Shown here one piece after another: positions 29,541 to 40,771 of a DNA stretch of 64,000 bases; position 1 is the first letter of the stretch, and each line of letters begins with the position of its first letter. Below the pieces are notes generated by a model. The model did not search any database. It was not told the DNA's origin and was given only the letters and a program-made list of their open reading frames with translations. Location: the IMG/VR virus record IMGVR_UViG_3300028603_000024, positions 38,030-102,029 of that record; one strand, 5' to 3'. Origin of the DNA: a virus. Lineage: Duplodnaviria; Caudoviricetes. Made by a program: the position numbers and the translations under genes.

Positions 29541-31868
29541 TCACGTTCCGAAACCTTGCAACGATTGCCCTGTAACGAGCTTCGGGATGTAGGAATTACT
29601 ATCCATATCAGCGGTACCACCGCGGTGTACGGCGTCCAGTAACCCTCGACCAACATAGAAGGAACCTAGCCGTTCCATCCAATCCGGGCTGGGCAGAAGA
29701 TTTGTCATAGCCCTCTCCATTCGAGGGGTGAAGGGCGGGGGATCGTTATGTACCATGACGCGGTCAACTCGATGTTCCCGCAGTCGGCGGGTTACCGAAG
29801 GTGTCAGCCTGGTACCGATGCTGTAATGCATAACGGGTTGTTCCAGATAGCCGCCTCGCACGCTCTCCAGTGGCGTATCTACGGTGCCGTCCCGTGGTTG
29901 ATATACGGCAGCGAGGCGGTCATACTCCATGACGTCGCCGGGCAAGGCGCCGGGGATCGAATCGGACTCGTCCTGGACTTCTACGTGATTTATTAAGGAG
30001 CGGCTCAGGAGCTCCACGTTACGACGATTGGTATTAATTTTGGACAGTTTCAAAACGTCTCGCATCAAGTCCATAAAATACCGTCGCCCCTCGCCGACTC
30101 CTTTGTACTTAGCAATCATCGCCGGGTTGGGCAAGCCATTACTGAGTACGTCACCGGCTTCGACCCGGTCTCCGACACGCACAGTCACCTCCTGGTCGGG
30201 CGGCACGTAATGTTTCTCGTCTCCGACAATGGCGTACCAACCGCCCTGAGCGGCCTTTTCTATCGCCTTAACCCGGCCGTCGTTAACGGCGTGGGCGGCT
30301 CCGTTGGTGTATGTGGTAGGCACCTGAATGAGCTGGTTAATTACGCCAAAGCCGCCTTGCCGTACGCCGCCGGCGCCGCCGGAATTGGATACGATTAAAC
30401 CGTTGGACAGGGCGAAGAAATGATCGGGGTGATCGACCTCGATATCGTGCGTCTCAACGAGGCCCAAGGGCTCCGAGTGAGTCCGCTGTAATCGGTCGGG
30501 AAGACCTGCCACCCAAGCCTGTAAAGCGGGCTCATCTTCGGTAGTAACTTCCGTCGGCAGGAGGGCGCAAAACGAGTCGGCCTCAAAACCCAGGGGCAGT
30601 TTTCTGGGTGTGTAATCCAACTCGTCTCGACCCCCGGAGATGTAAGACAGACCAAGAATGTTGTGGTCCTCGGTGGCCCCGAGGACTCGCTCCTCCTCGG
30701 GGCTGGAATTATTAAAATAATACAGTCGGCACTCCCGCAGCCCGTTATTAAACACGCGGGTCACCCGAACAGGCGTCAAACGACCTTGGGTGTCCGACCC
30801 AAATACCCAATCTCCAACTTTGATATCCTCTATTCGTTTGTCGGTACCGTCGGCCATCTTGACCATTGTGCCTCGAATAAGGCAGTGTTTCACATTCAAC
30901 GTAAGCTGGCTGAGCTGCTCCGTTATGGTCTGAATCGCAGGGATGCCCACTTGCTCGCCGGGATCAGCGAATCCGCCCCGCTCCCTGATGCCTAAGGCTT
31001 CAAGGGGTACGCCGCCGTCTTCGGCGATGTCTGATATGGGGCTGCGAATCAGTATTTCTTTTACGCCACGGGGCCAATTATTAATCATGCTTGGCGTAAT
31101 CACCTCGCCTGCTTTATAGGGTCCCACGGCCTGCGCGAGAACGGTGCCAACATTGTCGGGGTCGTCGGCCCGTACCGGGAGACCCACACCGGGGCGTAGC
31201 GGGGAATCAGTGGCAATCAATTTATGGGCGGCGAGGGCCAGCTGCTTACTGGCGAAGCCGGCGTCGGCCACAGACATCTTTGTAGCCACTGCTCCCTTGC
31301 GAGTGCCGTACATCTGCATCCAGTACTCCGCCGGTGATAAGCCCTCGGAGTAGCTGCTCGTTACCGGCAACGGTGTGGGATTATCGTTCTGGTCCAGCAT
31401 CAGCACGGGAGAGCCAACAACGGAGTTGAGCTGCGTAGCGTTACCACGAGCACCGCTGGCAACCTCAAGAGCCAAGGGATTATTGTCCTTTAATAACTTA
31501 TCAAAGGTCTCTTGCTCTGCTTGTTTTCCCAACGACCCCAGCAGCTCGAGAATGTGTTTATTTTTATCCGCCAAAGACCCCTCAGCGGCCAGGAGAGTGT
31601 CGACTCGTTTCCGCAGCTTGCGTACCCCGTCCTTAGGCATCGAAACGCTTTGTAGATCTTTCAAACCCACGCTATGCCCGGAAACGTAGGCGGAGAGGCC
31701 GCCGACCTGATGCAGGCGATGCAGAGTTTCACGGTACTTGTCGGGGTGTCGGCGAGCGAGATCGTCGAAGAACTTCTCCGTTGCCCGCTTATCCCAGATA
31801 CGGTTATAGTCCCGCATATCCTCCGGGATCGCTTCGTTAATTAACAGCTGCCCCATCGTGAGTTCCAT
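29541..31868 (-). CDS. RNA polymerase beta' C-terminal subunit (RpoC2-like) with a mini-intein
   Basis: SGARGN; SYSEGLSPAEYW..YGTRKG...ADAGF (F loop and bridge helix); GEQVG..AIQTITEQLSQLTLNVKH|SGG (trigger loop); VGDRVEAGDVLSNG. Confidence 0.9.
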   Translation of the reverse strand: MELTMGQLLINEAIPEDMRDYNRIWDKRATEKFFDDLARRHPDKYRETLHRLHQVGGLSAYVSGHSVGLKDLQSVSMPKDGVRKLRKRVDTLLAAEGSLADKNKHILELLGSLGKQAEQETFDKLLKDNNPLALEVASGARGNATQLNSVVGSPVLMLDQNDNPTPLPVTSSYSEGLSPAEYWMQMYGTRKGAVATKMSVADAGFASKQLALAAHKLIATDSPLRPGVGLPVRADDPDNVGTVLAQAVGPYKAGEVITPSMINNWPRGVKEILIRSPISDIAEDGGVPLEALGIRERGGFADPGEQVGIPAIQTITEQLSQLTLNVKHCLIRGTMVKMADGTDKRIEDIKVGDWVFGSDTQGRLTPVRVTRVFNNGLRECRLYYFNNSSPEEERVLGATEDHNILGLSYISGGRDELDYTPRKLPLGFEADSFCALLPTEVTTEDEPALQAWVAGLPDRLQRTHSEPLGLVETHDIEVDHPDHFFALSNGLIVSNSGGAGGVRQGGFGVINQLIQVPTTYTNGAAHAVNDGRVKAIEKAAQGGWYAIVGDEKHYVPPDQEVTVRVGDRVEAGDVLSNGLPNPAMIAKYKGVGEGRRYFMDLMRDVLKLSKINTNRRNVELLSRSLINHVEVQDESDSIPGALPGDVMEYDRLAAVYQPRDGTVDTPLESVRGGYLEQPVMHYSIGTRLTPSVTRRLREHRVDRVMVHNDPPPFTPRMERAMTNLLPSPDWMERLGSFYVGRGLLDAVHRGGTADMDSNSYIPKLVTGQSLQGFGT
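30384..30884 (-). mobile_element. 167-aa mini-intein in the trigger loop
   Basis: CLIRGTMVKMADGT..IEDIKVGDWV (block A), ATEDH (block B), THDIEV..HFFALSNGLIVSN|S; no endonuclease domain. Confidence 0.9.
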
Positions 31869-32108
31869 CTATCGTCCTCGGGACAGAGAAGAAACCAGAT
31901 CCAGCGGCGTCGTAGAGATGCCGTATTGCTTGCAGTAACCCTCGAAACGAGGGTCGTCGGCAGACAGTACCGCGATGCCGCCGTCGGGAAGCTCGAAAGC
32001 GACGGCGACGACGGCGCCGGCGTTGCCTCGAATCTTGGTTGCCGAGACGCCTGCGAATTTTATAGGCGCAACCATTGGCCCGCCGTCTTTATGTAACTCT
32101 ACAATCAT
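31869..32108 (-). CDS. small hypothetical protein coupled to the beta'-C gene
   Basis: Likely start MIVELHK at 32108 (ATGA overlap); its stop abuts the beta'-C ATG. Confidence 0.55.
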   Translation of the reverse strand: MIVELHKDGGPMVAPIKFAGVSATKIRGNAGAVVAVAFELPDGGIAVLSADDPRFEGYCKQYGISTTPLDLVSSLSRGR

Positions 32109-32566
32109 CCGCTCAGCCCCCTCAAGGTTGCGACCTTGCCGGGTTGCGGCTGCGGGGTAGGTGACGGCGACATGGCGGATTGCGGCGCTGCCCACGGTTG
32201 GGTCGGTTGTGGCGAAGCGCCGCCGCTGATGAGCTGCTGTACCTGCTGTTGGAGTTGCTGCACCTGCTGTTGAAGCTGCTGAAACATTGACAGCGGTACA
32301 ACGGAGGGGCCTTGGGGATCCGCCGGGGGTTCGGTACCTACGGCTTGCTCCTCCTGCCCCTGGGGCACCGCAATAACCGCGATCTTCTCGGTGCCTACTG
32401 TTAAGGAGCCGTTGCGGACGAGGGCTAGAAGCCCCCGAAGACCCTCCGCATTAGCGGGGTCTTCGAAATCAAAGTCGGCTTGAGGGGATATTTGTACCCC
32501 GCTCGATGTTGCCGCCAGTTTCACAAGCCCCAAGCTCTTCGGGAATTGAATCAGCACTTGGCTCAC
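32105..32566 (-). CDS. hypothetical Gln/Pro-rich protein
   Basis: 153 aa; VKLAA, EKIA and a Gln-rich coiled coil. Confidence 0.6.
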   Translation of the reverse strand: MSQVLIQFPKSLGLVKLAATSSGVQISPQADFDFEDPANAEGLRGLLALVRNGSLTVGTEKIAVIAVPQGQEEQAVGTEPPADPQGPSVVPLSMFQQLQQQVQQLQQQVQQLISGGASPQPTQPWAAPQSAMSPSPTPQPQPGKVATLRGLSG

Positions 32567-32584: not shown

Positions 32585-34078
32585 TTAACCTTGGACAGCC
32601 AAGGTAAACTCCGGAGGTACGACACCGCCGGACTGGTGTATCCGTAGACCGTCGATCGTTTCCTTGACCCGCGGACTGTGGTTTTTTACCCGCTCCTTAA
32701 AGGCCGTCTGTCTCTCCGGGGGCCACGATTCAATAAGGGCCTGAAATCGGGGCCATTGAGTGTCTCCCGCAACGGGGGCGGGGGTTGCCGAATTACTTGC
32801 GGTAGCAGATGCCTCCGGCTCGTCCTTAGTCTCGGATCCGCCGCCGAACAATCCGGCAACGCCGCTCAAAACTCGCTGTAGCCAGGAAGCTCCGATTTTA
32901 ACACCCGTTACGGCCTCCTGTGTGTCGGCTCCCAAGGAACCCTCCGCGGCAAGTCCGGCAACACACACCGCGAGGGTCTCGACGTCGTTGGAGAGCAGGG
33001 CATAGGCCCCCGCCTTCTGAAAGGAGGAAACCATGATGGCGCGCTGAATGAGCGGGTGTTTCGCGAGAACCAAGGCCACACCGGCGTGATCTCCAGCCTC
33101 CGCCAGCTTAAAAGAAGCAAAGGCCGCATCTTCGTATTGCTCAATAGGCCACTTGGTGCCGTCGAGGCCGACGACGTGAGATAACGACGCCGCTTTTGTT
33201 CGCAACTGTTCATCGATGCGCACCGCGAAGTCCGCTTTCAAGGGGGTTATCAACTCCTTAACCCGGTCCGTTGCCAGCTTTACAGCCAGTCCCGCTGAGG
33301 TCAGCCCCCGCCGGTCAGCGGCGGCCTCGACCCCGTTTCGCAGGGATCCGGCCAGTTTCATGGTCAGCTGGTGGTCCCGCATACCAGCGGCCAATACGCG
33401 ACGATAGGCTTGTACATCGCCTTTCGCGATCTTAACGACGGCTTGACGGCCTAAGAGACGGTCGTGAATACGCCGTACCAGGCCGCCGCTGCCGCCGGTA
33501 ACCATTGCCGTCGTCACCAGGAATGGCTGAAACTCGGTGAGGTCGTCGAGAGCGGCGCCCTTCTCGATATAATCGGCAGGCACTTGGGCGAGTAGGATAC
33601 GATTTATGGCACTGATGGCGGCTTGCTTGCGAGCCGCCTGCATCGCCAGGGTCCGGGCCACCGCCAACTTCATCGGCTGTACCCCGGCCGGGGGCATCGT
33701 ACCTTGCGCCGCGGCGGGGGGCGCATTGCCCGGCAGCGGTTGGCCCGCGGGGTCCATGACCTGCCCGGCGTCCTGCTGTCGTTGAGCCAGGATCTGCTGC
33801 TTTTCCGCCTCAGCCTTGGAGATCACCTCCTCGGTCTTCAGCTTCTGGACTTCTGCCTTGGCCATCTCGGCATCCGCCTTCATGCCCTCAGCCTCCGCCT
33901 TCACCTGCTTCGCAGCCTGCATCTTGGCCTGCTGCCCCGGCGTCATCGCGGGCGACGCTGACGCGGCCTGTTTGGTGGAGGCGGCCAGGCGGGGTGAGGG
34001 AGATGAACCCCGCCTGGCACTGCCATCCACCCCCTGGAGGAGGTTCATTGCAAATTTTGTCATCTTCTTTGAGTCCAT
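32585..34078 (-). CDS. putative internal head protein
   Basis: 497 aa; GGAGG RBS; at least 9 K-x-A sites. Confidence 0.6.
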   Translation of the reverse strand: MDSKKMTKFAMNLLQGVDGSARRGSSPSPRLAASTKQAASASPAMTPGQQAKMQAAKQVKAEAEGMKADAEMAKAEVQKLKTEEVISKAEAEKQQILAQRQQDAGQVMDPAGQPLPGNAPPAAAQGTMPPAGVQPMKLAVARTLAMQAARKQAAISAINRILLAQVPADYIEKGAALDDLTEFQPFLVTTAMVTGGSGGLVRRIHDRLLGRQAVVKIAKGDVQAYRRVLAAGMRDHQLTMKLAGSLRNGVEAAADRRGLTSAGLAVKLATDRVKELITPLKADFAVRIDEQLRTKAASLSHVVGLDGTKWPIEQYEDAAFASFKLAEAGDHAGVALVLAKHPLIQRAIMVSSFQKAGAYALLSNDVETLAVCVAGLAAEGSLGADTQEAVTGVKIGASWLQRVLSGVAGLFGGGSETKDEPEASATASNSATPAPVAGDTQWPRFQALIESWPPERQTAFKERVKNHSPRVKETIDGLRIHQSGGVVPPEFTLAVQG

Positions 34079-34139: not shown

Positions 34140-35015
34140 CTAAAGGGGCGGAGAACCGGTTGGGAGCGGTCCCCGAGCCCTCGGAGGTCCCTGAAGCTCC
34201 TTTTCTATCGTCGTCAAACTATTGAGCCCCGAGGTACGAAGAAGTTCAGCTAGAGCCTGCTGGCTGGGCAGTTTGGCCTTGGCCCGCTCAGATAAGTGAG
34301 GATGACGGATTATATCCTGCAGCATCTGTCCCCCTGACGGAGCAGAGACCATATCCCGTAGATGACTCAAGGCCTCGTCTCTCGGCAAGCCTTGGTAGAT
34401 TTGACCAGCCACGGCTCTACTCATTGCACCCGGAACTGCGCCCACCATGTCCGCCACAGCCGAGTCCGCCTTGGCCTGGCTGCTATGCGGGGCCAATAGG
34501 GCGTTGGCTCCCAAGCCCAAGCCGCCGCCGGCGAGACCCCCGAGAAGCAGGTTGCGAAGCCAATTCTTATCCTCCTCGTCCGACAAGGCCGAGAACAGAG
34601 CTCCGGTACCTGCCCCAAGAGCGGCGCCGCCGAGGCCGAGGCCGGTGGGTCCGAGGTTCGCGGCGGTTTCCACGACGTCGCCGACACCGGCTCGCTTCTC
34701 GGCGGTTAAGGCGAGGGCTGCGTTGTAAGCTGCCTGTTTGTTCGTCATCGCTGTCTCCTGCGTAGTCGCTTTCAGTATACCACGAGCTAAAAAAAGTCGC
34801 TGGCACGCCTGACGCATCTCCGCCTCCTTGACCCCGGTGGCGTCGGTATCACAGCTGCTGCAGCGATCCGGCACCTCCACTACTTGATGAGCCCGAGGGC
34901 GGCTGCAGCGACAGGTGCGAATGGTGTGCCCACAAGAACCGCGGATCGTACCGTGCCCCTTATAACCCTCATTAAGAAAGGCTTCGGCTTCTTTCATGGA
35001 GGCAAACTTGCGCAT
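34140..35015 (-). CDS. Zn-finger N-terminus plus Gly-zipper protein (possible internal start at 34748)
   Basis: SCGH..TCRC...CSSC, then MTNKQAA preceded by AGGAG; EKRAG followed by a Gly-rich hydrophobic hairpin. Confidence 0.55.
   Translation of the reverse strand: MRKFASMKEAEAFLNEGYKGHGTIRGSCGHTIRTCRCSRPRAHQVVEVPDRCSSCDTDATGVKEAEMRQACQRLFLARGILKATTQETAMTNKQAAYNAALALTAEKRAGVGDVVETAANLGPTGLGLGGAALGAGTGALFSALSDEEDKNWLRNLLLGGLAGGGLGLGANALLAPHSSQAKADSAVADMVGAVPGAMSRAVAGQIYQGLPRDEALSHLRDMVSAPSGGQMLQDIIRHPHLSERAKAKLPSQQALAELLRTSGLNSLTTIEKELQGPPRARGPLPTGSPPL
34774..34802 (-). promoter_or_regulatory. internal promoter CAGCGA-N17-TATACT (extended -10)
   Basis: TGGTATACT with a T-rich spacer; GCGA at the same spacing as at 14298 and 29538; RBS and ATG follow. 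Confidence 0.45.
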
Positions 35016-35017
35016 CT

Positions 35018-38000
35018 CTAACCCCCCGTGAGGCCCGCGAGGGCCTCGTCAAGATCCACCATCCGCGGCTTTGATCCCGGGATGATGACGTTGTCGTCCA
35101 TATTGATTTCGCCCCGCTGGAAGGCGGCAATGGCGGCTTTGGCACTTTCGAATATCTTGGGGGCCTTCCTCTTGGTTTTCGTCGCCGGCCGGCTGGCGGC
35201 GAAGAGACCGTACTGATACTCCTGTCGAGGCATGAAGTGGGCCTTGAAGTTCTTGACGTCAATCAGCTGCTTAGAGGGCATCATCTTTTCGATCACCTCC
35301 CGACGGGCCTCCTCGGAGGCCGGTACGTGGAAGGACATGGTGTCATAAACAACCAGACCATTATTCACCGCGAAGACCTTGGTGCCCAACACCGCGAGGT
35401 CGTAGACGTCTTTGCAGCCCGTGGGCGTTACTGACTTAACCGGCTCCCAGATCACGTCGACGTTCTCAACGCGACGCTGCAGGGCCTCCAGACCGGACGA
35501 TCCGGCAATTGCAAATAATCGCTGCAAGGAAGCCCTGGCCACACGGCCCTTAGCCACGGCCACGTAAAGCGACTGCATCTGCTTGTCTGTTTTGTAGCCA
35601 AGACAGATGCCCCGGATTGCGGTAATCTCGGCCCGGGAGAGCGGGATGATGTCACGATCATCCTTTGTCGGAGGGTTTTCAAGAAGCCGATGCCACGCGG
35701 TAATATTCTCCTCACCGATGAACCGCAGATTGGCCCGGTGGCGATATAGATCTACGCTGCTTACCGTCAGGGTGTAGGCCTCTCGACTGTGACCCCGAGC
35801 CGGCGAAGTTGTGACACCGATGCGGATACCAAGCCGGCTGCCGAGGACCAAAGCGGAGTCCCGGAGGAACGGGCTGGAGGTGTGCAACAGGGCCGAGAAT
35901 TGCGGCTTCTTTTTACTGTTGAGCCAAGTCATGGAGGCATCACCGTCCAGGAGCCCGCAGAGCAGGCCGAACAGGCAGTGCTCGGAACCCTCGTCAAGCA
36001 GGAAGGGCGGGATGTGCTTATAGCAGGCCGCTCGCTCATCGTCCGGTACCGGCGCCGCCAAGATATCCAACGTCTTGTTCACGAGGCCTCGCCCGTTCAT
36101 GTGGATCTTCGCAGAGTCGGCGTACTTACCGTTTTCTTCGGTCTTCTCCGCCAAGTACTCGTAGGTCTTAAAATCTTTACAAATCAACTCTCGGGCAAGC
36201 TGCTCGACCCTCGCCCGTCGCTTCGGGTCACTCTTGGAATAACCAACGGTGCGATCTGTTCGCCAGCCGTCAGCGATGATTACACCGTACCACCAGCCGA
36301 GGTCAAAGCTACCGTAGGTGCCGAATTGGGGGCTCCGACGCACCACAGGGCACAAGCCTCCAAGAGAGTCCCGGGGCGCCACTTTCTTCAGTCGCCCGGT
36401 GTCGGGGTCGAAAACCGCAAGGCTTTCATTGTCGCTCACCCCCACCGCGTGACTGGAGGTACGCACCTCAACGCAGGGCACACTTGCCTCGTGCGTGAAG
36501 TGCGTGACATCGGCAAAGCACTGTTTTCCTGTATCCACGTCATACGACAACACCTGCAGTCCCGGGGGGACGGCGTAGACATCGGCACCGTTGCGGTCCT
36601 TGACCGGCTCACCTACGCGAGGGAACTCCCCGATCTGCAAGGATCTCAATCTTCCCGCCTCTTGCATCATAACCATACTTGTATATATTACGCAATTTCC
36701 GTCGAAATCCGCATTCAGTTGTTTAGTTATCTGCGGACTTATACGTAACGAGTCCGTGGCGGAGAGTACGGGCCAAGCCCCGAGGATGCTATAGCGGTGC
36801 AGCGACGGCGCTCGGTTAATCATCACGGGGCGGTGCTCCATCTCCTCCAGCATAGCATCCCGGGCCACTGAGGCATGCTCCTTGACGGCCTTGGCGGCCT
36901 CCAAGGGCTTAAGACCGCGGCCTACGAGACGCTTCATGATGAAGGGCGAATAGACTTTCCACGCCGATTTCTCCGGAATTGCAACGTGATCCATATCCAG
37001 CCTCGGGTCCGGCGTGATTACCGCCCGGCCCCCCAAGTTAACGGTGCCGCCCATCAGCTTCCTCTGAAACAGGCCGGTCTTCGGTCCGCCGCTGCCGAAG
37101 ATAACCGAGAGCAGGCCCTTGGCCTTGCGTTGCTGCGTCTCCCGGTTGATCGGATCGCCGAGGCCCACAACGGCCTTGGCGGCGTCGTAGAGGGCAAGAA
37201 GTTCGTCACCGCTGTGCTCCTTACCCAGGTCCCGAGACAAATCCCGGTACACACCGCGGGCCTGCAAGAGATCTTTGTACAGCATGTTGGAGCCGTTAAC
37301 GAGGGGTACGTCATTCATCATTGAGATCGGACGATGCGCCGGCGGCAGCACAGGCAGTTTGGTGATCAGCATCTCCTGCGGTTTTAAGCCGGTCTCCTGG
37401 AACATGGTCAGAATCCGCAGCTTTTTAATCGCCTTATCCCTCGCGGTTCGAGCGCCGGTGCGGATCTTCTCCTTCGCGGCTGTAACACCTCTCTCGACGT
37501 CAATTCGTCGCAGGGCCGCTTCAATCGCCTCCGGTCCGGACTTCCCCTGAAACTGCGTCTTGCCGGCTAGAATATCACGCAACTGCGACTCGGTGAGATC
37601 GAGCAGCTTGCGGATCGGATCCTCCATCACAGGGTTTGGAATCTTGGTACCCAGCTCGATCTTGGCGAAGCGGTCCCCGCCGTGCCCGCCAGTAATACCG
37701 CGGTCGAAAAGTCCGCCCTTGACGGGTTCCAGGTCGGGCAGCCGCACCGTTTCCGCTTCGGTTATCTCGCCCTGAGCCAGTTCGTCAACCATGTCATCGG
37801 TCATAGCCATGATGTTTAATTTAGAGCCATCTTGCTGCACATTAACGCCGCTGGCTGCCAGGAGGCTGAGAAATTTGTTCAACATCGGCGAGGCCTTCGG
37901 TTTCGGGGGTGCGTAGCCCATACGGATCGCCCGCCAATATTCTTCATTACGATGCCCACGAACGATATTGGCGTCGTCGAGAACATTGGTGGCGCCAGCG

Positions 38001-40771
38001 GAAAGCAAGGCGTTGAGCTCCATTAACCCGAATCTTGGGGCCGACTCGTCTCCACCTTTGGCCGGCGCCCCCTCAGCGGTGTGTCCGCCGGCATCGCCCC
38101 GCCCACTGACTTTACTCTCGGCGAGGTGGTGCAGCCGCATGTAGAATCGCTTGCCGGCGCTTACCTTGGGTATTTTGCGGTTCAAGACGGGGTCGAAAAT
38201 ATCCATCTCGGAAGACATCCCACGACTCTTGAGTTCCTCAAGAGTCCGCCGCGTGAAGTCCGACTTGCTGAAGGCTGCGATATTAATCGGTTTGCCGTCT
38301 TTAGCGGCAATGCGGCCCCAAGCGGCCTCCACGGACTGGATCGGATTGCCGCGACTGATGATGCCGAAGGGGTTGACGAGCGCGTCAAACGGATTTCCAT
38401 CCTCATCGGTGGGCATCTGATGATCCGGAAGTATAGAGCTAATTATATGTTTGTCGCCAAAGCGCCCTGCCATCTTATCCCCGACGTGAGCCGGGTTCTC
38501 CGCTTTGATGGCCACCACCAGGCCGCGGGGGCCGGCGGCGACGTCGGTTACGAAACCGGGTGCATCATGATCCCATACCACGGAATTATCAACATACCGC
38601 GGTTTACCCCCGGAAAGCATGCCAGTCTTCTTCGGCCGACTACGGCTGGTGGCGAGAATGACGGGGTCGCCTTTCTGCACCGTTGTTCCCGGCTTTATCG
38701 TACCGTCGTCATCGATCTGCTTGAGTTGCTCCTTCTTGTATACCGCAGGAAACAGAGCCGTGAACCGTTTTTTGTCCGGCTCGCCGCCGTCGCGATCCAG
38801 TTTCTTGGTGTACATCTGCTCCGCTACCAACTTCTTAGCGCCGCTCTCGCTGAGCGTAATGGCGTCTTCATAGTTCGACGACCCGCCGCGGATGAAGGGG
38901 ACGTAGGCCACGTTAAGATTGGTACCTAAGGCCAAGGTGCCTTCGTCGTCAGTCATGTTACTGGTGGCCAGGAGCTGCCCGTCTTCAACGGCCTGCCCGA
39001 TCTCCACGCGAGGTGTGTGCTTCAGCATCGTACGCCGATTGTAGGGTACATAATTGGCGATTGAGTACTTACGCTTCTTGCCGTCCTCGCCTTGAACCTC
39101 TATATCATCATCGGTAACATTGGTAACCACGCCGCCGCCTCTCGCCGACACGGCCCCGATACGGCGTCCTAGCTGCCGTTCATAGGACTCCTCCCCGGGT
39201 TCCCCGGTCTGTACAAGGGGCGCCTCTCGGTGGACCAACGGCAGCGCCTGGGAGATGAACTTGGCGCCGAGGAAGACACGACCGCCACTGTCGCCCGATA
39301 TTCCCGGGATCAATTTACTCTGCATCGCGAACAGGCTATCACCGCGGGGCATGATATAATCAACACGATCCCGTGGCACCCTCTGAAGTTTACCGTGGGC
39401 CACGGCGAGAACAACATCGTCGTCCTCCTCCATTTCACCTGGGAAGGCGATGATGGAATCTGCGGCGGTATCATTGTCCAAGGAGACCGATTTACCGCTA
39501 CGGGCATCAATCATGGGGGCGTAGATACGACCGTCACGACCCTTCAAGGCACTATCAACGAAACGAAGATCGACGCCCACCTTAGAGCTCTCCGGCGTTC
39601 GGATCCCATCGATGTAGCCGGCGTAGGAGGGTTGTACGTTCCTCGCCTCGTCAGGCACGGCTTCCACTGACGGGATGGCTCCCTCACCCAAGCGAACCAC
39701 CCTTGAGAGCTGGTCGTATATCTCGGTAGGATTAGTCTCCTCCGGCGGCGACGCCAGCCCGGAAGAGAGTAGGACCTGGTCTATGTGCTTATTGAAAATA
39801 CCGGCCGGAATCTGGTCAAGATTACCTCGTTTGGCCAGCTTGTAAGTCAAGCTTTTGACTACCCGGCCGGCGTCGTTCTTAATACGCTCCCGAAAAAGAT
39901 CTTCGTGCCCGACGACTCGTTGATATGCGAGACCGTCTCGGTTATCGGGCTCGATGTCACCCCGATGCAACTTCAAGATAGCAGTCATCGAGTCCATCAA
40001 GGCGTCGGAACTTAAGCGATCATAGGGTCGGCCGATAGCGGATCTTGCGGTGGCGTCGGGGTCGTAACGGAATCGCGAGAGCTCCTCCCGGAGTTTCTCC
40101 TCGTCGCTGCGGTTATCACCTTCGACGTCTCGCACCCCAAAATCCCGCAAGGCTCTTGCGAGCACGCCGGGTCGGATCTTTTCGGTATTGGCGGCATAAA
40201 GATCCTTGCCGAGAGCTTCAAATAAGGTTTTATCCTCGGCTCCCAAAGCCTTCAGGATCGGTACAATAGGCAGGTTGGCCTGCCCGGTGCGCAGGAAGAA
40301 CCTACCAGTCTCGGGCGCGAATCGAACTCGAAATTGTTTTCCGGTACCCACGGCAGTATTGAAGTGACTTTCAATTTCTCCGTTCCGCTTGCGGTGAGTA
40401 AATACTCCCGGTCTTAACCTGGCCTGGTTGGCCAGGGCGTACTCCACACCGTTGCGGATATAGGTCCCCCGATGCGTCAAAGTCGGCGCGAGGGCCAACA
40501 ACTTCTTTTTGCGGTCCAGCTCCTCACCGTCTCGCTCCAGTACCCAAGTACCGTATACCGGCGTACCGATAGTGCCGCGACCCAGCAAGGCCCTCTTGTG
40601 CGCCGCATAACTTAGGTCTGGAGCCTTACCGGCCTCGACATCCGTCAGCCGTAGCGTGGTGGCGCCGTAGGACACTGGTTCGAAAGATTGTAGCGCTCCC
40701 AAGGTGTCATCCAGCACCAGCTGCCGCGTGGTGTCGATGTCGTCAAAACGGCGAGGCTCTGAGGCCCTCAT
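35018..40771 (-). CDS. RNA polymerase beta subunit fused to the beta' N-terminal part, containing an active-site intein
   Basis: Beta motifs: GTYIRNGVEY, RTPESSKVG, QALPL, NYEDAI, GDKMAGR, RFGLMELNAL. Beta' motifs: GGLFD..ITG, LPVLPPAHRP, GRAVITP, NRAPSLHR, NADFDG, MSFHVP. Confidence 0.93.
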   Translation of the reverse strand: MRASEPRRFDDIDTTRQLVLDDTLGALQSFEPVSYGATTLRLTDVEAGKAPDLSYAAHKRALLGRGTIGTPVYGTWVLERDGEELDRKKKLLALAPTLTHRGTYIRNGVEYALANQARLRPGVFTHRKRNGEIESHFNTAVGTGKQFRVRFAPETGRFFLRTGQANLPIVPILKALGAEDKTLFEALGKDLYAANTEKIRPGVLARALRDFGVRDVEGDNRSDEEKLREELSRFRYDPDATARSAIGRPYDRLSSDALMDSMTAILKLHRGDIEPDNRDGLAYQRVVGHEDLFRERIKNDAGRVVKSLTYKLAKRGNLDQIPAGIFNKHIDQVLLSSGLASPPEETNPTEIYDQLSRVVRLGEGAIPSVEAVPDEARNVQPSYAGYIDGIRTPESSKVGVDLRFVDSALKGRDGRIYAPMIDARSGKSVSLDNDTAADSIIAFPGEMEEDDDVVLAVAHGKLQRVPRDRVDYIMPRGDSLFAMQSKLIPGISGDSGGRVFLGAKFISQALPLVHREAPLVQTGEPGEESYERQLGRRIGAVSARGGGVVTNVTDDDIEVQGEDGKKRKYSIANYVPYNRRTMLKHTPRVEIGQAVEDGQLLATSNMTDDEGTLALGTNLNVAYVPFIRGGSSNYEDAITLSESGAKKLVAEQMYTKKLDRDGGEPDKKRFTALFPAVYKKEQLKQIDDDGTIKPGTTVQKGDPVILATSRSRPKKTGMLSGGKPRYVDNSVVWDHDAPGFVTDVAAGPRGLVVAIKAENPAHVGDKMAGRFGDKHIISSILPDHQMPTDEDGNPFDALVNPFGIISRGNPIQSVEAAWGRIAAKDGKPINIAAFSKSDFTRRTLEELKSRGMSSEMDIFDPVLNRKIPKVSAGKRFYMRLHHLAESKVSGRGDAGGHTAEGAPAKGGDESAPRFGLMELNALLSAGATNVLDDANIVRGHRNEEYWRAIRMGYAPPKPKASPMLNKFLSLLAASGVNVQQDGSKLNIMAMTDDMVDELAQGEITEAETVRLPDLEPVKGGLFDRGITGGHGGDRFAKIELGTKIPNPVMEDPIRKLLDLTESQLRDILAGKTQFQGKSGPEAIEAALRRIDVERGVTAAKEKIRTGARTARDKAIKKLRILTMFQETGLKPQEMLITKLPVLPPAHRPISMMNDVPLVNGSNMLYKDLLQARGVYRDLSRDLGKEHSGDELLALYDAAKAVVGLGDPINRETQQRKAKGLLSVIFGSGGPKTGLFQRKLMGGTVNLGGRAVITPDPRLDMDHVAIPEKSAWKVYSPFIMKRLVGRGLKPLEAAKAVKEHASVARDAMLEEMEHRPVMINRAPSLHRYSILGAWPVLSATDSLRISPQITKQLNADFDGNCVIYTSMVMMQEAGRLRSLQIGEFPRVGEPVKDRNGADVYAVPPGLQVLSYDVDTGKQCFADVTHFTHEASVPCVEVRTSSHAVGVSDNESLAVFDPDTGRLKKVAPRDSLGGLCPVVRRSPQFGTYGSFDLGWWYGVIIADGWRTDRTVGYSKSDPKRRARVEQLARELICKDFKTYEYLAEKTEENGKYADSAKIHMNGRGLVNKTLDILAAPVPDDERAACYKHIPPFLLDEGSEHCLFGLLCGLLDGDASMTWLNSKKKPQFSALLHTSSPFLRDSALVLGSRLGIRIGVTTSPARGHSREAYTLTVSSVDLYRHRANLRFIGEENITAWHRLLENPPTKDDRDIIPLSRAEITAIRGICLGYKTDKQMQSLYVAVAKGRVARASLQRLFAIAGSSGLEALQRRVENVDVIWEPVKSVTPTGCKDVYDLAVLGTKVFAVNNGLVVYDTMSFHVPASEEARREVIEKMMPSKQLIDVKNFKAHFMPRQEYQYGLFAASRPATKTKRKAPKIFESAKAAIAAFQRGEINMDDNVIIPGSKPRMVDLDEALAGLTGG
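35342..36694 (-). mobile_element. 451-aa atypical intein with a LAGLIDADG homing endonuclease
   Basis: Starts CVIYTSMV and ends VYDLAV..KVFAVNNGLVVYD|T; LAGLIDADG motifs WYGVIIADG and LLCGLLDGDA. Confidence 0.85.

Follow-up and report, generated by a model that had tools for sequence, protein, structure and literature searches.

An intein family in the catalytic loop of phage RNA polymerases that occurs with asparagine in place of the third metal-binding aspartate

We analysed a stretch of 64,000 nt from the Caudoviricetes record IMGVR_UViG_3300028603_000024 (the whole stretch is called the window below), in which the Mg-binding loop of an RNA polymerase (RNAP) gene is interrupted by an intein. 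The host gene encodes a fusion of 1917 amino acids (aa) that joins an RNAP β-like part to the N-terminal part of β′, with the reading frame open over its entire length. Pfam matches of the fusion protein were RNA_pol_Rpb2_6 (1.3e-40), Rpb1_2 (1.1e-17), Rpb1_1, Intein_splicing and LAGLIDADG_3; the last two were weak, LAGLIDADG_3 falling under its cut-off. The PHROGs matches of the same open reading frame (ORF, 35018-40771) were families of RNAP β subunits.

A preliminary description of this DNA, based on its letters alone, had reported a loop N-A-D-F-D-G-N followed by a 451-aa LAGLIDADG intein that begins with Cys, ends in Tyr-Asp and is followed by Thr-Met; translation confirmed this anatomy. 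The loop as encoded departs from the three-Asp Mg-chelating form (NADFDGD) in its third position, position −1 with respect to the intein, which is Asn. The intein starts with C-V-I-Y and finishes with V-V-Y-D, after which the C-extein resumes with T-M-S-F-H-V-P. Residue-by-residue alignment of blocks F and G with those of DnaB mini-inteins places Tyr450 on the penultimate His (position G:6); by extension, Asp451 would take the place of the terminal Asn (G:7). Coordinates of all features are collected in Table 1.

Table 1. Features of the interrupted polymerase gene, its intein and the associated β′ gene (positions in the window)
Feature	Position	Strand	Basis or conservation
Host gene, 1917-aa fusion of RNAP β-like part and N-terminal part of β′	35018..40771	-	ORF, Pfam, PHROGs
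Mg-binding loop encoded as N-A-D-F-D-G-N	36695..36715	-	Translation of window 35300-36760
Asn(−1), codon AAT	36695..36697	-	Translation, orthologue alignment; Asp in all intein-less relatives
Type I intein, 451 aa, HINT splicing domain with nested LAGLIDADG homing endonuclease (predicted)	35342..36694	-	Model, Foldseek, block alignment
Cys1, codon TGC, N-terminal splicing nucleophile	36692..36694	-	Cys in 144/144 type I clusters
Glu69	36488..36490	-	Type I: E 116, D 27, Q 1; His in 22/22 type II/III clusters
Block B, S87-D88-N89-E90-S91	36422..36436	-	Ser at Thr B:7, Asn89 at B:9, Glu at His B:10
LAGLIDADG motif 1, G-W-W-Y-G-V-I-I-A-D-G-W, intein residues 133-144	36263..36298	-	D142 and G143 95% conserved
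LAGLIDADG motif 2, L-F-G-L-L-C-G-L-L-D-G-D, intein residues 241-252	35939..35974	-	D250, G251 and D252 84-93% conserved
Asp432, block F position 4	35399..35401	-	166/166 across three intein types; aligns with D of V-F-D-L in DnaB inteins
Tyr450 (TAT), G:6, replacing His	35345..35347	-	DnaB alignment
Asp451 (GAC), intein C-terminus, G:7, replacing Asn	35342..35344	-	DnaB alignment, by extension
Thr+1, codon ACC, C-extein nucleophile	35339..35341	-	Type I: T 139, S 5
Remaining C-extein, 106 aa and stop codon; end of the β′ part	35018..35338	-	Aligns with C-termini of the Arash and Vibrio D69 orthologues
Separate gene, C-terminal part of β′ (Rpb1 domain 5 and Hint)	29541..31868	-	Pfam
Second intein, canonical mini-intein (H/C ... 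T-E-D-H ... S-N/S), ~167 aa, without endonuclease	~30381-30887	-	Inside ORF 29541-31868

A word-indexed search and an exhaustive HMMER search yielded 306 representatives (E < 1e-30), and anchored local alignments allowed us to place both junctions in 166 intein-bearing and 27 intein-less clusters. The inteins found at this site are homologous and fall into three types. Type I (144 clusters) combines Asn(−1) with Cys1, Glu or Asp at position 69 (143 clusters), a block B of the form S-x-N-E-S, a C-terminal Asp preceded by Tyr, Trp or Phe, and Thr or Ser at +1. Type II (14 clusters) has Asp(−1), Ser (12 clusters) or Cys (2 clusters) at position 1, His69, block B S-x-D-H-S, a terminal Asp preceded by Tyr, Trp, Met or Gln, and Thr at +1. 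Type III (8 clusters) has Asp(−1), no conserved nucleophile at position 1, His69, block B T-D-D-D-(P/E), a Ser-Asn end and Thr at +1. The intein-less clusters carry Asp at −1 (27/27) and T, A, S, K or N at +1. A dead copy among normal homologues, a possibility raised in the preliminary description, would stand out from its family; the window intein is a typical member of type I, the dominant type.

Five residues, Asn(−1), Cys1, Asn89, Asp432 and Asp451, are invariant in all 144 type I clusters. Nearly so are the acidic residue at position 69 (143/144) and Glu90 (135/144, with Ala, Pro, Gln or Asp in the other nine clusters), and position 450 is Y in 75, W in 56 and F in 9 of the 144. The signature is retained in seven type I mini-inteins (<350 aa) that lack most or all of the endonuclease, which argues that selection is on splicing.

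Asn(−1) and the C-terminal Asp had earlier been read as a reciprocal swap. This interpretation failed: type II likewise ends in Asp yet keeps Asp(−1), and Asp451 therefore does not correspond to Asn(−1). The residues that shift with Asn(−1) lie elsewhere within the intein (His69 to Glu or Asp, Asp89 to Asn and His90 to Glu), and the tightest pair is formed by positions −1 and B:9, both Asn in 144/144 clusters of type I and both Asp in 22/22 clusters of types II and III. For comparison, the second, canonical intein of the window has T-E-D-H where the type I intein has S87-D88-N89-E90. It looks as if two Asn/Glu pairs had taken over from two Asp/His pairs, the number of carboxylates staying the same and their positions moving. 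Glu69, Asn89 and Glu90 may form a cradle for the side chain at −1 (a ‘side-chain clamp’), and the rewired centre would require Asn, rather than Asp, at this extein position. A scan of the 1466-aa extein found −1 to be the sole position that splits type I hosts (110/110 Asn) from all others (37/37 Asp).

An AlphaFold2 model of the intein, computed from a 57-row alignment, reached a mean predicted local distance difference test score (pLDDT) of 91.9. Its best Foldseek matches were TliVMA (7qss, E 1.3e-19), PI-PfuI (1dq3) and PI-SceI, the top structural matches being inteins throughout; matches to the LAGLIDADG structures I-DmoI, I-Tsp061I and PI-PfuI were found as well. The exteins align to intein-less orthologues without gaps, as befits an in-frame interruption with a HINT fold, and the boundaries of the insert are exact because the loops of the Arash and D69 orthologues have the same number of residues. 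As in class 1 inteins, Cys1 is present in 144/144 type I clusters, Thr or Ser stands at +1 in 144/144, and the block F Asp (Asp432) is found in 166/166 clusters. Two other class 1 hallmarks are lacking. Block B Thr-x-x-His is represented by S87-x-N89-E90, with Glu at B:10 in 135/144 clusters and His in 0/144; the His-Asn of block G has given way to Asp at G:7 in 144/144 and to Tyr, Trp or Phe at G:6 in 140/144. Classes 2 and 3 were ruled out by the presence of Cys1 and by Asp, not Cys, at block F position 4. The homing endonuclease is predicted from two LAGLIDADG motifs, each with an acidic residue (D142 and D250), and from the structural matches. From purifying selection on the junction residues, mini-inteins included, we infer that the intein is excised and the exteins are ligated.

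Both junction codons are spanned, with 0 differences, by contigs of an independent groundwater study (X3) and by those of another landfill study (X4), and the GAT/AAC alternative that the preliminary description had considered did not appear. The 14 related viral contigs use AAT as well as AAC for Asn(−1), and GAT as well as GAC for the terminal Asp; since synonymous codons vary at both junction residues, selection acts on the protein. Intein and extein are equal in base composition (GC 0.582 versus 0.581; GC at third codon positions 0.70 versus 0.69). That the copy is an artefact of sequencing or assembly, or a pseudogene with a non-splicing intein, has in its favour the unusual residues themselves and nothing beyond. 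Against such an artefact or decaying copy stand the identical independent assemblies, the frame open across 1917 aa, the like base composition of intein and extein, and a signature common to 144 clusters with synonymous variation at both junctions; we rejected it as refuted for practical purposes.

To follow the history of the signature, we compared an intein tree, built without the signature columns, with a polymerase tree built without the −1 column. All type I rows lie on one side of a single branch of the intein tree (support 99), and the same is true of type III; the type I signature therefore has a single origin and shows no reversion. Mapped on the polymerase tree, the type I label changes 26 times, and at least 13 of these changes are forced by well-supported branches. 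The window polymerase itself belongs to a supported five-row group whose other members, two intein-less rows and two of type III, all have Asp(−1). The type I element has therefore moved among polymerase lineages many times, at least 13, bringing the Asn codon each time. This codon directly abuts the insertion point and was probably carried along by co-conversion during homing.

The two smaller types deserve separate description. Type III members (P0086, P0088, P0089, P0095, P0229-P0231 and P0235) occupy the same DFDGD/T site in other phages. Their first residue is Q, D, K, S or G, and Gln2 is present in seven of the eight. With Ser at G:6 and no nucleophile at residue 1 they are reminiscent of class 2 (KlbA) inteins, from which they differ by Thr, not Cys, at +1; they are not class 3 inteins either, as block F lacks Cys. 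A few type II elements (P0188, P0225 and IMG/VR locus L015:3001-4422) combine Asp(−1) with Cys1 and a His-type centre, and the idea that Asp(−1) cannot adjoin a Cys1 thioester, which would have been the simplest rationale for Asn(−1), was rejected on the strength of these three.

Type I is a large lineage with a rewired splicing centre that is apparently undescribed. A tblastn search with the intein alone against 50,697 GenBank phage records gave no match. In the literature we found no paper describing this family, a search for inteins in jumbo-phage RNAPs returning only unrelated PolB and terminase inteins. Single elements of the signature have precedents: a terminal Asp or Gln is accepted as a residue that can cleave the C-terminal junction by cyclising (PMC4031507), a residue other than His occupies G:6 in ∼5% of inteins, and one functional group of inteins lacks His at B:10 (PMC4031507, PMC6333167). 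Our literature search found no large family that combines a non-Asn terminus, a non-His G:6, an acidic B:10 and an obligatory Asn(−1).

Our preferred reading, to which we give about an even chance, is that an active and mobile class 1-type intein, in which a LAGLIDADG homing endonuclease is nested, separates the third triad position from the Thr of the β′ loop, and that Asn is retained in the mature polymerase. The type I centre would operate with Glu at B:10 (in place of His), Asn at B:9 (Asp), Glu or Asp at position 69 (His), Tyr or Trp at G:6 (His) and Asp at G:7 (Asn). Splicing would begin with an N-to-S acyl shift at the Asn(−1)-Cys1 bond, giving a thioester at Asn(−1); the N-extein would then be passed to the hydroxyl of Thr+1, Asp451 would cyclise to an anhydride with cleavage of the Asp451-Thr bond, and an O-to-N shift would finish the ligation. 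The primary ligated product would be DFDG-N-T-M. In the mature polymerase Asn would serve as the third metal ligand, its carbonyl oxygen taking the place of a carboxylate, and the enzyme would work well enough; any cost of Asn would be offset by the homing drive of the element and by its inability to revert. The canonical splice register is supported by the residues flanking the junctions, because Cys1 and Thr or Ser at +1 are invariant only where the intein is present, and +1 is relaxed in intein-less alleles.

Several observations weigh against retention of Asn. Asn encoded on its own appears to be selected against, because it is never seen without the intein. The preliminary description had suggested a look for intein-less orthologues that carry DFDGN; we found none in this phage family (0/27 clusters), and an exact-pattern scan of IMG/VR located D-F-D-G-N-T-M in 5 places, 0 of them in a polymerase, versus at least 118 places for D-F-D-G-D-T-M, at least 61 of them in polymerase context. 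The 1466-aa extein of this polypeptide shows no compensating change and the E-D metal motif of β is unaltered. According to PMC5856549, the triad D460/D462/D464 chelates the catalytic Mg ions and does not vary. Type I, with Asn, is ∼10 times commoner than type II, with Asp, which would be odd if Asn were costly. Moreover, splicing activity, register, chemistry and the fate of Asn are all deduced here from sequences. A tentative alternative, less probable in our view, has the same intein and the same register: coupled to splicing or after it, Asn(−1) would lose its amide nitrogen to give mature DFDGD, or isoAsp. Such a conversion of Asn to Asp was among the proposals of the preliminary description. 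The intein would then edit its host, Asn(−1) being a masked catalytic Asp that Glu69, Asn89 and Glu90, with Cys1 or Thr+1, deamidate so that DFDGD is regained. Speculative routes can be drawn in several ways. Glu69 and Glu90 could act as catalysts when Cys1 or Thr+1 attacks the Asn amide, with ammonia leaving and the resulting (thio)ester being hydrolysed; the amide nitrogen of Asn(−1) could cleave the Asp451-Thr bond in trans and depart with the intein as its C-terminal amide; an isoimide or anhydride could form at the Asn thioester; or Mg-assisted hydrolysis could take place inside the assembled active site. Cys-Gln thioester domains, Glu-assisted Lys-Asn isopeptide bonds and Thr-Gln ester cross-links resemble the first of these routes. 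In support of editing, a polymerase in which Asn never occurs without the intein, and whose extein shows no adjustment to it, looks built for Asp; the hosts switch between Asn and Asp with gain or loss of the intein at least 13 times, nothing else changing; no other type approaches type I in success; and two new carboxylates together with the invariant Asn89 appear exactly with Asn(−1). The invariance of the triad as described (PMC5856549) points the same way. Nevertheless, no known intein alters an extein residue, and our literature search found none. Repair of Asn could not be selected before Asn(−1) existed, and retention is favoured because Asn must have been tolerated in the earliest mutant that carried it at −1. 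It is favoured also because an assembled active site that repairs itself would make intein-less Asn near-neutral, and hence visible, yet none is seen. Replacement of Glu90 by Ala, Pro, Gln or Asp in 9/144 clusters, and the absence of a phage-encoded isoAsp methyltransferase (PCMT, PF01135) from the window's record and four related records, speak against editing as well.

If the interrupted polymerase were not the working transcriptase, being a low-activity or non-catalytic virion component while a divergent second enzyme or the host enzyme does the work, Asn would cost little. We consider this improbable. The interrupted gene provisionally looks like the only RNAP of a phage of ∼200 kb: in two complete related genomes with a type I intein (G001 and G003) it holds the sole detectable β′ catalytic domain. 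A single Pfam β′ model underlies this count of polymerases per genome. In two other related complete records (G002 and G005) that model failed to detect the polymerase, and a divergent second enzyme could escape it too; in addition, the IMG/VR record of the window (102 kb) is judged only ∼51% complete, related complete records having 176-236 kb. Against a non-working polymerase, type I hosts strictly conserve the first two Asp of the triad, the remainder of the loop and the E-D motif of β; purifying selection on the splicing residues is strong; and in intein-less relatives the same gene retains a perfect DFDGD. Very unlikely, in our estimate, is a further pair of schemes in which Asp451 supplies the missing ligand, either in place in an unspliced protein or through a shifted register that removes Asn(−1) to Tyr450 and leaves DFDG-D-TM. 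The shifted register would give exactly the wild-type loop, and the termini of inteins lie close together in HINT folds. However, a shifted register would leave no role for Cys1 and for Thr or Ser at +1, which occupy the canonical nucleophile places without exception, so that the new chemistry by which the preliminary description let the terminal Asp be kept is unlikely; neither Asn nor Asp has a known way to break the Gly-Asn or the Tyr-Asp bond (PMC4031507), and type III, which ends in Asn at the same site, needs the canonical register. An unspliced or branched product using the intein Asp, another of the earlier proposals, is made very unlikely by splicing residues that are invariant even in mini-inteins without endonuclease, and by the position of the loop, buried between the main and secondary channels (PMC5856549), with no room for a 50-kDa domain. 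The proposed maturation switch could be said of any active-site intein, and we found nothing specific in its support. In rough terms, then, retention of Asn(−1) stands at even chances, conversion to Asp is a lesser possibility, and the other readings taken together make up a smaller share still.

The partition of the polymerase is itself unusual, as β is joined to an N-terminal part of β′ that ends 107 aa past the catalytic loop. The gene for the C-terminal part of β′ lies ∼3 kb downstream of the fusion gene. Of the ORFs between the two polymerase genes, 34140-35015 and 32585-34078 had no Pfam or PHROGs match and 32105-32566 had no Pfam match. Two elements of one polymerase need protein splicing, because the β′ C-part gene is also interrupted by an intein. 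Orthologous fused polymerases (P0023, P0051, P0073 and others) reach 2500-3143 aa, 500-1200 aa more than the window protein, and these longer orthologues bear additional Pfam intein and endonuclease domains (PF03161, PF05204 and PF14890). Judging by such domains, this polymerase gene is evidently a hot spot for several inteins at other sites. Landfill metagenomes of several studies and one groundwater metagenome (public runs X1-X5) contain DNA nearly identical to window positions 35200-36900; landfill and groundwater are the likely habitat of this phage.

If Asn stays in the mature enzyme, widespread natural multisubunit RNAPs run on two Asp and one Asn at a triad held to be invariant across life, and the role of the third carboxylate becomes directly testable. 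If Asn is converted to Asp, inteins can edit the residues that they join, a new protein chemistry with uses in protein engineering, and this would be the first intein known to alter the chemical identity of an extein residue. Either way, a large natural family would splice without the block B His, the penultimate His and the terminal Asn, using carboxylates instead, and type I would be strict about the extein residue that precedes it. With its three types (Asn/Glu/Asn/Glu, Asp/His/Asp/His and nucleophile-less), the site offers a natural mutational series for activation of the N-terminal junction.

Among known systems, Salmonella phage Arash gp206 and its counterpart in Vibrio phage D69 are similar fusions of β and the N-terminal part of β′ encoded beside a portal gene, with ∼30% identity; they differ in having no intein and a loop A-D-Y-D-G-D-A-(L/M)-S with the third Asp present. 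Inteins that interrupt eukaryotic and viral RNA polymerase genes have been described (PMC1635734); the title and abstract of that work, by which we set its inteins apart, mention neither the DFDGD loop nor an Asn substitution. Inteins orthologous to Tko CDC21-1 likewise lack His at B:10 and reportedly compensate by other means (PMC4031507, PMC6333167), and PhoCDC21-1 (6rpq) is a weak structural match to the type I model. In that group a Lys outside the motifs is reported to compensate and −1 to be a bulky Leu, and the canonical C-terminus is kept, whereas in type I the B:10 replacement is acidic and coupled to Asn at −1 and B:9. Inteins with a terminal Asp or Gln (Amitai, Dassa and Pietrokovski 2004, as given in PMC4031507) share a terminal residue other than Asn; the same source describes their centre as otherwise canonical and reports no linked change at −1, while in the present family Asp at G:7 is fixed in types I and II. 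The class 1 LAGLIDADG inteins TliVMA (7qss), PI-PfuI (1dq3) and PI-SceI (1vde) have the same combination of HINT domain and two-motif LAGLIDADG endonuclease (Foldseek E 1e-19 to 1e-11, template modelling score 0.5-0.7), Cys1, a hydroxyl nucleophile at +1, the block F Asp and a site in the catalytic loop of an essential enzyme. Type I differs from them by Glu at B:10, Tyr or Trp at G:6 and Asp at G:7, and by an absolute requirement for Asn at −1, where it displaces a catalytic residue of the host protein.

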